A DNA stretch of 32,000 nt from Clostridia bacterium (GTDB lineage Bacteria; Bacillota; Clostridia; TANB77; RGIG9151). How positions within the stretch are numbered: the stretch's first letter is position 1; each line of letters begins with the position of its first letter. The stretch lies in contig JAGBIO010000025.1 in NCBI GenBank assembly GCA_017934955.1, forward strand, positions 72,787 to 104,786, written 5' to 3'. The position numbers and the translations under genes are program-made. Positions 12,654 to 16,595 of this stretch are shown here, one piece after another. The notes under the pieces were generated by a model, which worked only from the letters and a program-made list of their open reading frames with translations, searched no databases and had not been told where the DNA came from.

Positions 12654-13484
12654 ATGAACAAACGCTCAAAGAAGAAGAGAATGAAGCGAATAATGAAAGC
12701 GGTCGGTTTTGCTTTTGCTATGACGGTTTTCTCGGCAGCGGTTTATGTGACTCAAATCAAAGAAGTGAATGTGAATTACTTAGGTCAGAATATTTCTTTT
12801 AAGACGATGGCATCGACGGTAAATGATGCGTTAAAAGAGAAAAATATTGAAATTAAAGAGGGCGAAAATATTTCGACCGATATCTATAGCAGACTTGGAA
12901 AAAGTAATAACATTGTAATTGAGAAGCCGGTGGTGTTAGCAATGGCAGAACCGGTTGCAGTAGAGCCGAAAGTGGAAGAGCCGGTGGAACCAGCCCCGGT
13001 AGAGAAAGAAGTTGTGTTTGAGCAGGAACCGGAAGTAGTGAAAGAAGTAAAGACAACGAAATCCGCAACGTCGCGTGGCGTGGTAAGAACAACTTGGGCG
13101 CCGGATGTAACGGAAGTGGAAGACGGCGTTTTGGAAACTGCCGATGGAGAGGTAATTGAGTATTCGCAAGTGATGCAGTTGGAAGCGACAGCGTATTGCC
13201 CTTGTTATTCTTGTTGCGGAAAGCATCCGGGAAATAAATGGTATAACGTTACAGCGACCGGAACAACCGCGAAAGTAGGAACTATCGCAGTAGATCCACA
13301 GGTAATTCCGCTTGGCACAAAGGTTTATATCGAAGGATTGAACGGTGCAAAGAATTACGGGTATGCCGTTGCAGAAGATACCGGCGGTGCGATTAAGGGA
13401 AATATCATTGATTTGTATTTCAATACGCATGGTGAAACCGTGATTTGGGGAAGACAACAAGTGAAGGTTTATATCTTGAAGTAG
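12654..13484 (+). CDS. 3D-domain cell-wall protein (DUF348-like N-terminal part, Pro/Glu-rich linker, C-terminal 3D domain)
   Basis: GGGAGGG upstream, signal anchor, linker PVAVEPKVEEPVEPAPVEKE. C-terminus ATAYCPCYSCCGK...GTIAVDPQVIPLGTKVYIEG...AEDTGGAIKGNIIDLYF is typical of 3D/YabE/YocH-like proteins. Confidence 0.8.
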   Translation: MNKRSKKKRMKRIMKAVGFAFAMTVFSAAVYVTQIKEVNVNYLGQNISFKTMASTVNDALKEKNIEIKEGENISTDIYSRLGKSNNIVIEKPVVLAMAEPVAVEPKVEEPVEPAPVEKEVVFEQEPEVVKEVKTTKSATSRGVVRTTWAPDVTEVEDGVLETADGEVIEYSQVMQLEATAYCPCYSCCGKHPGNKWYNVTATGTTAKVGTIAVDPQVIPLGTKVYIEGLNGAKNYGYAVAEDTGGAIKGNIIDLYFNTHGETVIWGRQQVKVYILK

Positions 13485-13488
13485 AGAA

Positions 13489-13641
13489 GTTACAGGTCAG
13501 ACTTAAATTTATAGAGAAGGCACGAACACTGTAGGGACAGCATTTATGCTGTCCGCGGAATAGGCAGAAAGCAGGACAGCATAAATGCTGTCCGTACAAT
13601 GGTTGCGCATCATTGTAGGACGATATAGTCTGACTTGTAAC
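13489..13641. mobile_element. MITE (153 bp) with TIRs gttacaggtcagact / agtctgacttgtaac and an internal REP doublet
   Basis: Perfect 8-bp direct duplication GTAGAGAA at 13481-13488 and 13642-13649 flanks the inverted termini. Inserted right after the stop codon of the 3D-domain gene. Confidence 0.85.
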
Positions 13642-13670
13642 GTAGAGAAAAGATATTTAATTAGAAAATA

Positions 13671-13699
13671 TTGACAAAAGAAAGAAAATAGGGTAATCT
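13671..13699 (+). promoter_or_regulatory. sigma-A-like promoter TTGACA-17-TAATCT (candidate antitoxin sRNA, unit 1)
   Basis: TTGACA 13671-13676, 17-nt spacer, TAATCT 13694-13699. The block ttagaaaatattgaca is conserved at 14158-14173. Confidence 0.6.
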
Positions 13700-13705
13700 A
13701 ATAGT

Positions 13706-13777
13706 AGAAACTTTAGAAACTTATCCGTTTTATATGGACAACAAAAAAGGATGCTGGGGGCATCCTTTTTTGTTGTC
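13706..13777 (+). ncRNA. candidate ~70-nt antitoxin sRNA, unit 1
   Basis: Runs from the promoter above to the terminator at 13737-13777. Contains tttagaaacttatccgt (13712-13728), an exact direct repeat of 13838-13854, so it is perfectly complementary over 17 nt to the convergent mRNA just after its SD. Ends are approximate. Confidence 0.5.
13737..13777. terminator. bidirectional intrinsic terminator shared by convergent transcripts (unit 1)
   Basis: ggacaacAAAAAAGGATGCtgggGGCATCCTTTTTTgttgtc. GC stem flanked by A6 and T6, extended by ggacaac/gttgtc. Confidence 0.8.
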
Positions 13778-13782
13778 TGTGT

Positions 13783-13863
13783 TTAGGAGCAAGTACTTGT
13801 AAGAACAAGAAACACGACAATAAGTATAACTATAAATTTTAGAAACTTATCCGTAAGAATCAC
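13783..13863 (-). CDS. candidate type I toxin, small hydrophobic peptide (up to 26 aa: VILTDKFLKFIVILIVVFLVLTSTCS)
   Basis: Strong SD AAAGGAGG (13863-13870 on the + strand). Open frame to TAA at 13783-13785 just before the terminator. One TM-like stretch. Start is uncertain: the only in-frame canonical start (GTG 13863) overlaps the SD, and the codon homologous to the well-spaced GTG of unit 2 is ACG (13854). Confidence 0.4.
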   Translation of the reverse strand: MILTDKFLKFIVILIVVFLVLTSTCS

Positions 13864-13899
13864 CTCCTTTCAACAGAGATTATCCTTACGGACAAAAAG

Positions 13900-13928
13900 A
13901 GAATACCATATATTGTAAAATTTTACGA
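13900..13928 (-). promoter_or_regulatory. candidate promoter of the unit 1 toxin mRNA (TCGTAA-17-TATTCT; alternative -10 TACAAT)
   Basis: AT-rich block ttttacaatatatggtatt is conserved with unit 2 (14393-14421). The exact hexamers are ambiguous. Confidence 0.3.
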
Positions 13929-13987
13929 TATGTTTAAAATGTTTTTGTTGGTAAATTTGTGTTGAAGTATAAGTATAGAAATACTTT

Positions 13988-14150
13988 GTTACAATTCAGA
14001 CTCAAATTTATATATGTACCTTAAATTTTCCTCAGTCTATTGTAGGGACAGCATTTATGCTGTCCTGCTTTCTGCCTTTTCTGTGGACAGCATGAATGCT
14101 GTCCCTACATTGTTTGTGCCTTCTCTATAAATTTGAGTCTGATTAGTAAC
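13988..14150. mobile_element. MITE (163 bp) with TIRs gttacaattcagactcaaatttata / tataaatttgagtctgattagtaac and an internal REP doublet
   Basis: Perfect 8-bp direct duplication AATACTTT at 13980-13987 and 14151-14158. The internal part is nearly identical to 5807-5898. Confidence 0.85.
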
Positions 14151-14167
14151 AATACTTTTAGAAAATA

Positions 14168-14196
14168 TTGACAGAAGAAGGAAAATGAGATAATAT
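14168..14196 (+). promoter_or_regulatory. sigma-A-like promoter TTGACA-17-TAATAT (candidate antitoxin sRNA, unit 2)
   Basis: TTGACA 14168-14173, 17-nt spacer, TAATAT 14191-14196. Confidence 0.6.
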
Positions 14197-14202
14197 AATT
14201 AT

Positions 14203-14283
14203 AGAAGTATTATTTTGATTATATGTCTTGCTTTATACGGACAAAGAAAAAAGGGTGTTGGTGGCACCCTTTTTTCTTTGTCC
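14203..14283 (+). ncRNA. candidate ~80-nt antitoxin sRNA, unit 2
   Basis: Contains ttgattatatgtct (14215-14228), a 13/14 direct repeat of ttgactatatgtct (14331-14344). The mismatch gives a G:U pair with the convergent mRNA, and the duplex covers its start codon. Ends at the terminator 14239-14283. Ends are approximate. Confidence 0.5.
14239..14283. terminator. bidirectional intrinsic terminator (unit 2)
   Basis: ggacaaagAAAAAAGGGTGttggtggCACCCTTTTTTctttgtcc. Confidence 0.8.
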
Positions 14284-14299
14284 ATCTCAGTAGCATTCA

Positions 14300-14347
14300 C
14301 TAACAATAAGTAATAAGTAGGACGACTATCTTGACTATATGTCTCAC
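14300..14347 (-). CDS. candidate type I toxin remnant or very short peptide (15 aa: MRHIVKIVVLLITYC)
   Basis: AAAGGAGG then 8 nt then GTG (14347). Stops at TAG TGA (14300-14302 and beyond). The N-terminus resembles the 29-aa peptide at 18374 (MSRKYIVKII). Shortness suggests truncation. Confidence 0.35.
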   Translation of the reverse strand: MRHIVKIVVLLITYC

Positions 14348-14392
14348 AAGGTTCACCTCCTTTCAATAGAGATTATCCTTACGGACGAGAAA

Positions 14393-14421
14393 ACAATACC
14401 ATATATTGTAAAATATTACAA
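14393..14421 (-). promoter_or_regulatory. candidate promoter of the unit 2 toxin mRNA (TTGTAA-17-TATTGT)
   Basis: Conserved with 13900-13928. The hexamers are weak matches. Confidence 0.3.
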
Positions 14422-14461
14422 TATATTTAAATTAAAAAATCCTAAAATTTACAAAATTCTA

Positions 14462-14490
14462 TTGACAAACCGCATGATCGGTTGTATGAT
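14462..14490 (+). promoter_or_regulatory. sigma-A promoter TTGACA-17-TATGAT for the rpsP operon
   Basis: TTGACA 14462-14467, 17-nt spacer, TATGAT 14485-14490, about 58 nt upstream of the rpsP start. Confidence 0.7.
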
Positions 14491-14547
14491 ATAGAGGCTG
14501 TCAAGTAGTAGTACTTTACAGTATGAATGCAGAGGGGTGGTGAAATA

Positions 14548-14787
14548 ATGGTAAAAATCAGATTACAAAGAGTTGGAGCGAAGAAAGCACCGTTTTATAA
14601 AATCGTTGTTGCAGATTCGAGATATCCGAGAGATGGTAGATTAATCGAGGAAATCGGTAACTATGATCCTATGAAAGATCCTGCTGTAATTCATTTCAAA
14701 GAAGGCAAGGTTGATGAGTGGATTAAAAAAGGTGCACAGCCTACAGATACTGTGAAGGCTTTAATTAAAAAAGCGAATATTAACTAA
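14548..14787 (+). CDS. rpsP: 30S ribosomal protein S16
   Basis: [25 protein letters not shown] is a canonical S16 N-terminus. Start moved to ATG 14548 after GAGGGGTGG. Confidence 0.97.
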
Positions 14788-14804
14788 TAGAGGAGGAATA
14801 CGCA

Positions 14805-15035
14805 ATGAAAGAAATGTTAGAGACAATCGCAAAATATTTAGTTAATAACCCGGATGCTGTTTCCGTTACGGAAGTAGAAGGAGAACAATCTGTAATTCTT
14901 GAACTCAGAGTTGATCCGGAAGATATGGGAAGAGTAATCGGAAAAGAAGGAAGAATTGCAAAGGCAATCAGAACTCTTGTAAAAGCTAACGCTGTAAGAT
15001 CCAACAAGAGAGTAAACGTTGAAATTATTGAATAA
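14805..15035 (+). CDS. ylqC: KH-domain RNA-binding protein (YlqC/UPF0109)
   Basis: GRVIGKEGRIAKAIRTLV KH motif. Conserved position between rpsP and rimM. Confidence 0.9.
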   Translation: MKEMLETIAKYLVNNPDAVSVTEVEGEQSVILELRVDPEDMGRVIGKEGRIAKAIRTLVKANAVRSNKRVNVEIIE

Positions 15036-15072
15036 TTTCGAAGGGATTGTGAAATCTTTGGAGAAAAAAGAG

Positions 15073-15555
15073 ATGCTCTGTATAGGAGAAATCGTAAACA
15101 CGCATGGGATTCGCGGGGAACTGAAAGTGATTCCGTTGGTGGATGATGCGAATGATTTGTACTCTTACCGGAAGGTTTCTATCGATGGTACTTTTTATGA
15201 AGTAGAAGGAATTCGTTTTCATAAAAATTTCGCATTGATGAAATTGCATGGGATTGATGACAAAACGACAGCAGACCGCTATAAAGGAAAGTTCTTGGAA
15301 TTACCGCGTGAGGAATTGAAGCCGCTGGATGACGGGAGATATTATGTTTGTGACCTAATGGGATTAAAGATAATTGACGCGGAATTAGGCGAGCTTGGAG
15401 AAGTAAATGATGTAATTGAAACGGGAAGCAATTTGGTGTATGTGACCGAATATAACGGGAAACCGCTTTGCATTCCGGTTTTGGAAGGAGTCGTTCAGGA
15501 AATCGATATAAATGCCGGCTTTATCAAAGTTGTCCTTCCGAAGGGGTTAATTTAG
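15073..15555 (+). CDS. rimM: 16S rRNA processing protein RimM
   Basis: [17 protein letters not shown]-terminal PRC-barrel family signature. Start set at ATG 15073; the track start at 15019 overlaps ylqC. Confidence 0.9.
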
Positions 15556-15566
15556 GAGGACTGAAA

Positions 15567-16247
15567 ATGCGTTTTGATGTTTTAACGCTGTTTCCGGAGA
15601 TGTTTTCCGCTATAAAGGAGAGCATTATCGGGAGAGCAGAACAAGCCGAATTGATAGAGATTCATCCTGTGAATATACGGGATTTTGCGAATAATAAGCA
15701 TAACCGCGTAGACGATTATCCGTATGGCGGAGGGGCAGGTATGGTGATGCAAGCTCAGCCGATTTATGACGCGTATAAAAGTTTAGCGGGAGAAAATAAG
15801 ACGATTCCTGTGATTTACATGTCTCCGCAAGGAAGGAAATTGACACAGTCAATGGCGTCGGATATTGCAAAGCATGATCATGTGATTTTGCTGTGCGGGC
15901 ACTACGAAGGAGTTGACGAACGGATTATCGAGGAGATTGTAACTGAAGAAATTTCCATCGGTGATTACGTTTTGACCGGAGGCGAGTTGCCGGCGATGGT
16001 GCTGATTGACGTAGTATCGAGATTGATTCCGGGGGTTTTGGCGGATGATTCGACAAAAGAAGAGTCTTTTTCGAATGGTTTGCTGGAATATCCTCAATAT
16101 ACAAGGCCCGAAGAATTTATGGGGCGCAAGGTGCCGGAGGTTCTCTTGTCCGGTCATCATGAAAATATCAGAAAATGGAGAGAAGAGCAGTCGCTGTTAA
16201 GAACAAAGCAAAAGCGACCGGAATTATTAGATAAAGAGGTGAAATAA
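15567..16247 (+). CDS. trmD: tRNA (guanine37-N1)-methyltransferase TrmD
   Basis: [39 protein letters not shown] motifs. Start at ATG 15567 after AGGAGGA. Confidence 0.95.
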
Positions 16248-16250
16248 ATA

Positions 16251-16595
16251 ATGGATATTATGAAGAGCATTAACGAAGAACAACTTAGAACTGATTTACC
16301 GCAATTAAACATTGGTGATACTGCTAAAGTTTATTATAAGGTTATCGAAGGTTCTCGTGAAAGAATTCAGATGTTTGAAGGTACAATTATCAAGAAGAGA
16401 GGTGCCGGTATTTCTGAAACATTTACAGTAAGAAGAATTTCTTACGGTGTAGGTGTTGAAAGAGTATTCCCTGTTCATTCTCCTAAGATTGATAAAATTG
16501 AGATCGTTAGAACAGGTAAAGTTAGACGTGCAAAACTTTACTACTTAAAAGACCGTGTTGGTAAAGCAACTAAGGTTAAGGAAAAAATGCAATAG
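16251..16595 (+). CDS. rplS: 50S ribosomal protein L19
   Basis: FNIGDT-type N-terminus ([26 protein letters not shown]) and RRAKLYYL. Confidence 0.97.

Follow-up and report, generated by a model that had tools for sequence, protein, structure and literature searches.

Positions 14158–14431 of the 32,000-nt stretch of Clostridia DNA analysed here (contig JAGBIO010000025.1; hereinafter designated the window) hold a pair of predicted convergent transcription units (hereinafter designated unit 2), which is a tandem paralogue of unit 1 (13661–13938, minus strand), a module of the same architecture with a different direct-repeat sequence. We conclude that unit 2 probably represents a new type I toxin-antitoxin (TA)-like family with RNA control resembling that of the par locus, and that its toxin has recently been inactivated while its antitoxin is apparently intact. 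The 15-aa open reading frame (ORF) of unit 2 is near-certainly the remnant of a 23-codon peptide gene after a frameshift caused by an 11-nt deletion; toxin-antitoxin function is the uncertain part of this combined explanation. The region from 13300 to 15200 of the window was read in detail, and the elements of unit 2 are arranged as follows.

14168–14196, plus strand: predicted promoter of the antitoxin RNA, TTGACA-17-TAATAT, with 10/12 consensus matches; second-best sigma-70-like site in the region
14202–14228, plus strand: direct-repeat copy in the antitoxin 5′ region, 27 nt, complementary to the toxin start region
14203–14277, plus strand: predicted antisense RNA, ~75 nt, with its start placed 7 nt past the −10 box and its end at the U-tract
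14235–14241, plus strand: possible second contact, UACGGAC pairing with GUCCGUA (14386–14380) at the very start of the toxin RNA
14239–14283, both strands: shared bidirectional intrinsic terminator, 19-bp stem and 7-nt loop
14245–14386, minus strand: predicted toxin mRNA, ~142 nt, with its start placed at the G at 14386
14287–14304, minus strand: relic of the ancestral C-terminus, GTT AGT GAA TGC TAC TGA (VSECY, stop), now out of frame
14302–14300 and 14299–14297, minus strand: stop codons TAG and TGA after the truncated ORF
14300–14347, minus strand: truncated ORF, GTG plus 14 codons (MRHIVKIVVLLITYC), then TAG
~14313/14314: junction of the 11-nt deletion; plus-strand AAGCACGATAC is missing relative to the sister-strain locus L016
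14318–14344, minus strand: direct-repeat copy inside the toxin coding region
14341–14386, minus strand: toxin mRNA 5′ hairpin; inner stem AUCUCU (anti-Shine-Dalgarno):GGAGGU (Shine-Dalgarno), outer stem between the 5′ end and the region around GUG
14347–14345, minus strand: start codon GTG
8 nt, minus strand: spacer between the Shine-Dalgarno (SD) sequence and the start codon, TGAACCTT
14363–14356, minus strand: SD sequence AAAGGAGG, 8 nt 5′ of GTG, invariant in all modules
14393–14421, minus strand: predicted promoter of the toxin gene, TTGTAA-17-TATTGT plus the TG of an extended −10, read from the sequence

The 15-aa frame and its intact relatives

Related loci were obtained by using the proteins neighbouring the module as search handles.

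L016: sister strain with an identical S16 protein; both units present
L015: independent assembly, 100% identical to the window across 14121–16471
L004, L005 and L006: three JGI samples with a single unit 2-type module directly downstream of the gene for a 3D-domain protein (3D gene); 3D protein 77% identical
L011 and L012: two ENA assemblies, module-bearing; 3D protein 79% identical
L007: partial module copy that ends at the contig end

Six modules, five of them distinct, were aligned; they come from the window, L016 and two more distant relatives (L004–L006 and L011/L012). By blastn, the modules of L004–L006, L011/L012 and L007 are 79–84% identical to unit 2 and 70–72% identical to unit 1, and unit 2 is the orthologous copy because the relatives' modules match it better than they match unit 1.

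Compared with L016, the window is 98.4% identical over 1.09 kb (unit 2 and rpsP), with six mismatches and a single 11-nt gap that falls inside the ORF and is adjoined by a C-to-T change at 14311. L015 carries the same 11-nt deletion allele, which excludes a single-assembler error. From the same GTG, the intact alleles encode 23-aa peptides in L016 (MRHIVKIVVLLSIVLLLIVSECY), L004 (MKYILKIIVLLSIVLLLLVSECC) and L011 (MKYIIKTIVILGIVILLLVSESC). The first 11 residues are the same in the window and the intact allele, read-through after the frameshift supplies the new C-terminus, ITYC, and the +1 frame of the window still reads LLLIVSECY followed by a stop. The preliminary description of this DNA had proposed an orthologue comparison to see whether the TAG at 14300–14302 is a recent nonsense change. 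Run here, that comparison rules out a point mutation: every intact allele also has the TAG TGA bases but reads them in a different frame, as GTT AGT GAA, and the loss of 11 nt shifts the frame into these pre-existing stops after 15 codons, which leaves the toxin half of unit 2 almost certainly dead. Given the 98.4% identity to L016, the truncation is recent. The promoters, hairpin, repeat, terminator and antisense RNA of unit 2 are unaltered beside the deletion, which points to a recent pseudogenisation that left an orphan antitoxin. Of the two readings offered for the short ORF in the preliminary description, the decaying toxin beside an intact antitoxin thus gains support, since a sister strain and orthologues carry the full 23-aa ORF from which this allele has been truncated, whereas a genuine micro-peptide becomes unlikely.

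The intact alleles bear the marks of a real gene under purifying selection. Among the three orthologous ORFs, the ratio of nonsynonymous to synonymous change (pN/pS) is 0.22–0.37, synonymous change is enriched (Fisher p 0.001 to 0.03), and the variable columns fall at codon positions 1, 2 and 3 in the numbers 8, 3 and 11. The intact peptides are extremely hydrophobic, with grand average of hydropathy (GRAVY) values of 1.9–2.2 and an uncharged run of 14 residues; the C-termini of the intact relatives read VSECY, VSECC, VSESC or TSTCS. The 15-aa product of the window has a GRAVY of 1.63 and an uncharged run of nine residues, which is predicted to be too short to span a bilayer.

The possibility that MRHIVKIVVLLITYC is itself a functional micro-peptide, either a new, shorter toxin or a regulator, with the deletion being adaptive, seems very unlikely to us. 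Its SD, 8-nt spacing, GTG, promoter and hairpin are intact, its first 11 residues are unchanged and it is still hydrophobic, all of which would suit such a role. However, intact regulatory parts are what a recent deletion is expected to leave at this degree of identity to L016, the lesion is out of frame relative to an intact sister allele and the old C-terminal codons and stop persist behind it, the uncharged run has been cut from 14 to nine residues, and the ORF has exactly 23 codons in each of the three orthologues and is under purifying selection there.

Predicted convergent RNAs and their pairing

The two convergent promoters are predictions at the level of consensus matching, 10/12 for the plus strand and 8/12 together with the extended −10 for the minus strand. 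The −35 and −10 boxes of the antitoxin promoter are conserved in 6/6 aligned modules, and the toxin promoter is likewise conserved across them. The region is AT-rich and abounds in promoter-like sites (11 observed, 6.2 expected). The antisense RNA folds with nucleotides 1–40 unpaired in the centroid structure and with the terminator hairpin as its 3′ end (z = −4.25). The 19-nt arms of that terminator are 100% complementary, and inside the stem a G+C core (GGGTG/CACCC) is flanked by an A-run (A6, 14247–14252) and a T-run (T6, 14270–14275), so that termination is possible from both directions. A simple scanner does not list the terminator because it stretches the stem through the T-run; the position of the element is kept in all aligned modules.

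On the minus strand, the G at 14386 is taken as the start of the toxin mRNA because it lies 7 nt past the −10 box and because near-perfect conservation between the two units starts there. The mRNA folds better than its shuffles (z = −3.97), and its 5′ hairpin is predicted in every module folded (unit 1, unit 2 and the L004 orthologue; z −4 to −7.7). Across modules, 98.5% of alignment cells in this hairpin are paired, compared with 45–60% in slid controls; all six AUCUCU:GGAGGU pairs of the inner stem are invariant and thus give no covariation support. In par toxin RNAs an upstream helix sequesters the extreme 5′ end; here, the partner of that end (GUCCGUAAGG) is the start-codon region in the minimum-energy fold and GGAC beside the terminator in the centroid.

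The preliminary description had reported a direct repeat at 14215–14228 and 14331–14344, and 13 of these 14 positions do match, with the lone difference giving a G:U pair; the full repeat is longer than claimed, forming one 27-nt block that includes this 14-nt stretch. The duplex that had been proposed over the start codon is also recovered, with 23 contiguous pairs that start at GUG and run into codon 8, at −29.5 kcal/mol (500 shuffles, −13.6 ± 2.8, of which 0/500 reached this value). In the co-fold of the two RNAs, 24 intermolecular pairs cover toxin nucleotides 40–63, from GUG to codon 8 (14347–14324), and the complex is more stable than the two monomers by 26.9 kcal/mol. The promoter, terminator, SD, 8-nt spacing, GTG and TAG TGA all lie where the preliminary description had placed them, and its proposal that a type I TA-like module is present here in a second tandem copy is supported by the complete par-like architecture together with the covarying antisense pairing.

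That covariation comes from repeats whose sequences differ by module type and which are always repeated: AGACATATAGTCAAG in unit 2, AAATACATATTAAAA in L004 and ACGGATAAGTTTCT in unit 1. At 21 aligned intermolecular pairs in the five distinct modules, 96.2% of cells hold standard pairs and 14/21 pairs have changed on both sides; neither the pairing nor the covariation score was equalled in any of 500 shuffles, and pairing falls to 27–53% when the partner is slid. Seven of the 11 differences between repeat copies are G:U-compatible, which points to selection on RNA pairing and not on DNA identity. Cognate duplexes between antitoxin and toxin 5′ regions range from −20.7 to −30.3 kcal/mol (z −4.1 to −6.0, 500 shuffles) and always cover the start codon. 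A possible second, 7-bp contact also appears in the co-fold, with 97% of cells paired across modules compared with 17–46% in slid controls; this contact might correspond to the second par repeat or compete with an upstream helix.

Taken together, these features best support a mechanism like that of par (PMC7472228), in which the peptide, 23 aa long and very hydrophobic, would be translated from an mRNA made by the weak minus-strand promoter, and the stronger plus-strand promoter would make the antisense RNA. As the transcripts would converge on one bidirectional terminator, they would end in complementary 3′ hairpin loops suited to first contact, and opposite reading across the direct repeat would allow the antisense RNA, through its unstructured 5′ end, to pair with the start codon and the first 7–8 codons. 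The mRNA 5′ hairpin would hide the SD and GUG until the RNA complex forms, and antisense binding over GUG and the codons that follow would then block initiation. The sequences show the architecture and its conservation, the covarying duplex, the constraint on the coding region and the deletion; we infer that both RNAs are made with the ends given above, that pairing blocks translation, that the peptide damages membranes and that the antitoxin is the less stable RNA.

Unit 1 aligns with unit 2 over the whole length (83% mean column identity by MAFFT, 70.6% by blastn), and a 19-mer of the 5′ untranslated region, GTCCGTAAGGATAATCTCT, occurs exactly twice in the window, with 0.01 expected. The unit 1 ORF (13783–13863, minus strand) is without a properly spaced canonical start codon: its GTG at 13863 overlaps the SD GGAGG, and the position aligned to the unit 2 GTG is ACG in both the window and L016. 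From that aligned position unit 1 has 23 codons of the same pattern, (M)DKFLKFIVILIVVFLVLTSTCS. Unit 1 may therefore be translationally attenuated or silent, in which case the genome might be without any active toxin. Cross-duplexes between unit 1 and unit 2 are at background (−7.6 to −12 kcal/mol), so the co-resident units are predicted not to cross-pair, their pairing sequences having diverged to apparent orthogonality. Protection by the unit 2 antitoxin against the unit 1 toxin was considered and rejected on its predicted duplex energy of −12 kcal/mol, which is background. Between orthologues the prediction differs: the antitoxin of L011 (2153–2176), a different relative at species level, and the unit 2 toxin of the window and L016 are predicted to pair at −32.1 kcal/mol, compared with −29.5 to −30.3 for the cognate duplexes. 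Cross-neutralisation between orthologous modules is thus conceivable, although the co-resident paralogues look orthogonal.

An nhmmer profile of the six modules found no further module copy in the window or in the other loci, and it recovered the whole ~290-nt unit at E 1e-75 to 1e-91 in relatives whose 3D protein is 77–79% identical.

Known type I systems and competing explanations

The closest design among known systems is that of the par family, whose features are convergent promoters, a shared bidirectional terminator, direct repeats and an SD-hiding 5′ stem-loop (PMC7472228). Like par of the Enterococcus faecalis plasmid pAD1 (Fst, RNA I/RNA II) and its chromosomal and plasmid relatives, the module combines convergent promoters with a shared terminator that yields complementary 3′ hairpins, reads the direct repeats in opposite directions so that the antitoxin pairs with the toxin initiation region, includes a GUG start codon in the duplex, hides the SD in an intramolecular 5′ stem-loop, and has repeats that are poorly conserved between paralogues, so that co-resident copies would be free of cross-talk. 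Unlike Fst, the peptide lacks a conserved Trp, a charged C-terminus and a P/D/S/TxxxG(C) motif, and Pfam Fst_toxin gives no match to the peptides even at E ≤ 10. Peptides of the Fst/Ldr family are ~27–35 aa long, compared with 23 aa here. The repeat also differs from par in being one continuous stretch of 21–27 nt (possibly with the 7-nt second contact) and not a short DRa/DRb pair. The unit 2 toxin terminator loop, CCACCAA, is without the YUNR motif, which sits instead in the antitoxin loop UUGGUGG; the L004 and L011 toxin terminator loops do carry YUNR, and the motif is not universal in the par family (PMC7472228). The host, too, differs from those of par, the modules here belonging to an uncultured Clostridia lineage. 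Judged by these sequence features, the module would be par/Fst-like in operation and not an Fst family member by the toxin criterion.

In size and composition the peptide resembles that of the Ibs/Sib modules of Enterobacteria, which likewise have an ultra-short, extremely hydrophobic product without a charged tail. Ibs toxins are 18–19 aa long, and the IbsC sequence gives a comparable GRAVY; Pfam Ibs_toxin yields no significant match (E = 8.5 with an artificial doubled query). Each Sib RNA is encoded antisense to the entire ibs ORF. By contrast, the antisense gene here is convergent, shares a terminator and a direct repeat, and overlaps the ORF only through the repeat; the phylum differs as well.

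The class Clostridia also includes the C. difficile modules CD2517.1-RCd8, CD0956.2-RCd10, CD0977.1-RCd11 and others, in which a convergent antisense RNA overlaps the gene of a small hydrophobic toxin (PMC6563280). Those type I toxins have 34–59 aa and Lys-rich charged C-termini, and their genes lie beside CRISPR arrays or in prophages (PMC6563280), whereas the peptide here has 23 aa, no charged tail and a location between housekeeping genes; no sequence similarity to the C. difficile type I modules was detected. Resemblance extends to txpA/RatA and bsrG/SR4, type I modules on the chromosome of the Firmicute Bacillus subtilis whose two genes are transcribed convergently and overlap at their 3′ ends. 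Their antitoxins act mainly through the 3′ overlap, unlike the present module, in which the dominant conserved contact is the 5′ direct-repeat duplex over the start codon. SR4 is reported to control both the decay and the translation of its toxin mRNA (PMC3834814).

Rfam gave no match at gathering score in the window. At E ≤ 10, weak matches in the two units lie far below threshold, namely ncr1015 (E = 0.24, 26.9 bits vs 60) and OrzO-P (E = 0.13), with BsrG on unit 1 at only E = 8.5; all of them arise because of the terminators. Of these, ncr1015 was dropped, as it is an uncharacterised Bacillus small RNA without a TA link (Irnov et al. 2010) and the match rests on the terminator. Prli42, DUF5510, AsmA, ECSCR and Ibs_toxin (E = 8.5) were rejected as sub-threshold hydrophobic noise in the Pfam and NCBIfam searches.

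Several observations weigh against assigning unit 2 to the type I systems. Everything said on expression is prediction; the toxin promoter has only 8 of 12 consensus matches and is not listed by the promoter scanner. Covariation is not significant for the 5′ hairpin, in which two pairs covary, or for the second 7-bp contact. The peptides match no toxin family in Pfam or NCBIfam and lack the charged tail with which Gram-positive type I toxins typically end (PMC6563280). The comparison draws on a small sample of five distinct modules, paralogues included, all of one uncultured lineage, and L015 may come from the same or a sibling sample, so that a wide spread of the deletion allele is not implied. 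Scans of exact or degenerate DNA patterns against GTDB species representatives, JGI metagenome contigs and IMG/VR found no module copy, and blastn in 'distant' mode against plasmids and phages returned short AT-rich chance matches and no module copy.

The sole matches of the degenerate pattern used in the metagenome scan (L017, 218–242; L018, 103–126) are 3′ ends of 16S rRNA and were discarded as false positives; the pattern matched them because the plus-strand TCACCTCCTTT of the module equals the anti-SD sequence. Search patterns that contain the SD complement are prone to such 16S rRNA false positives.

Some of these points would suit a cassette whose product is a small membrane peptide without toxicity, its synthesis being tuned by an antisense RNA encoded in cis, with the deletion being the loss of a dispensable gene. 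Toxicity is itself a prediction, the peptide has neither a charged C-terminal tail nor a toxin-family match, the locus is chromosomal and lies beside housekeeping genes, and loss of the ORF is tolerated. We nevertheless consider this explanation unlikely, for three layers of repression on a 23-aa ORF (a hairpin that holds the SD and start codon, an antisense RNA that would cover the start codon, and opposed promoters of which one is weak and the other strong) are a hallmark of toxin control (PMC7472228). Moreover, the module is duplicated in tandem with orthogonal repeats, and it is variably present at the site among relatives, some of which have a HEPN/nucleotidyltransferase pair, in keeping with accessory or selfish behaviour.

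The untouched promoter, repeat and terminator of the antisense RNA might alternatively mean that selection keeps it as an orphan, either to neutralise incoming or homologous toxin mRNAs (anti-addiction) or to act in trans on other targets, and the predicted cross-pairing between orthologues (L011 antitoxin with unit 2 toxin, −32 kcal/mol) would fit the former. We give this explanation a slim chance: no pairing is predicted with the co-resident unit 1 toxin (−12 kcal/mol, background), and near-identity to L016 leaves too little time for decay, so that intactness is uninformative. Least credible of all is that nothing here is functional and that the locus is an intergenic terminator with chance promoter- and repeat-like motifs and spurious ORFs in AT-rich DNA. 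The excess of promoter-like sites in the region and the lack of an Rfam match at gathering score would be consistent with it, but chance motifs would hardly account for a ~290-nt unit conserved at the nhmmer E-values given above beside a 3D protein of only 77–79% identity, for a codon-periodic substitution pattern, or for 14 covarying intermolecular pairs.

Genomic setting and implications

The cassette lies directly upstream of the rpsP-KH-rimM-trmD-rplS operon. A near-consensus promoter (TTGACA-17-TATGAT, 14462–14490, plus strand, 11/12 matches) precedes rpsP by ~60 nt and points away from the unit 2 toxin promoter, which lies 40 nt from it. The source is an uncultured spore-former, the neighbourhood encoding YabP and YqfD. 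For the adjacent 3D-domain protein, the best named matches come from 'Clostridiales bacterium' metagenome-assembled genomes (~53% identity), and we take the sample names to point to ruminant gut metagenomes.

In relatives with a 3D protein of 69% identity, no type I module is present at the site downstream of the 3D gene (L024, 1997–2772; L025, 2877–3038; L027, 2089–2250). The same site holds a HEPN and nucleotidyltransferase pair (HepT/MntA-like TA) in some strains and is empty in L020–L023, L026 and L008, a pattern suggestive of a hot spot for small cassettes, whether accessory or TA. Among further 3D-gene relatives, the contigs of P0002, P0003 and P0005 stop right after the 3D gene and add no modules, and P0007 and P0009 have a different downstream sequence without a module.

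A family of palindromes resembling repetitive extragenic palindromic (REP) elements is dispersed through the window. Its cores (GGACAGCATnnATGCTGTCC) come in pairs, and 13 cores occur in 32 kb against 0 expected.

13489–13641 and 13988–14152: REP-like elements
1546, 5823/5863, 7171/7221, 9049/9093, 10487 and 18222: further cores

One full element of ~150 nt, with 112-nt arms that are 90% complementary, precedes each TA unit. The copy between the two units is absent from L016 and therefore represents an insertion polymorphism. The relatives' contigs break at REP-like elements, and L003 and L013 carry a variant with the stem changed on both sides (GGTCAGC...GCTGACC). Rfam matches to 'mir-144' and similar families at these elements are hairpin artefacts.

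Type I TA modules are badly under-annotated, their genes being tiny and their toxins without shared sequence similarity, and very few have been described in Clostridia outside C. difficile (PMC6563280). The par-type design, with its shared terminator, repeat duplex over the start codon and SD-hiding hairpin, is recognisable from sequence alone, and the locus couples this design, backed by intermolecular covariation, to a peptide unrelated to Fst. The modules appear to encode an undescribed family of 23-aa peptides, so far found in one uncultured Clostridia lineage only. A bolder proposal, which we hold to be doubtful, is that they constitute a hitherto undescribed type I toxin family. At 23 aa, its members would rank among the shortest such toxins known and be the shortest of Gram-positives; they would lack a charged tail and be governed by a par-type circuit in uncultured ruminant-gut Clostridia.

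For annotation, the 15-aa ORF should be called a pseudogene remnant and not a micro-protein. The locus would offer a clean natural case of toxin loss with antitoxin retention, along with two orthogonal co-resident paralogues. If unit 2 is indeed a type I module, the intact toxin of L016 and the deleted toxin and orphan antitoxin of the window would constitute a ready-made genetic pair for studying chromosomal type I function, and the same pair of alleles would let one ask whether orphan antitoxins persist as anti-addiction immunity.

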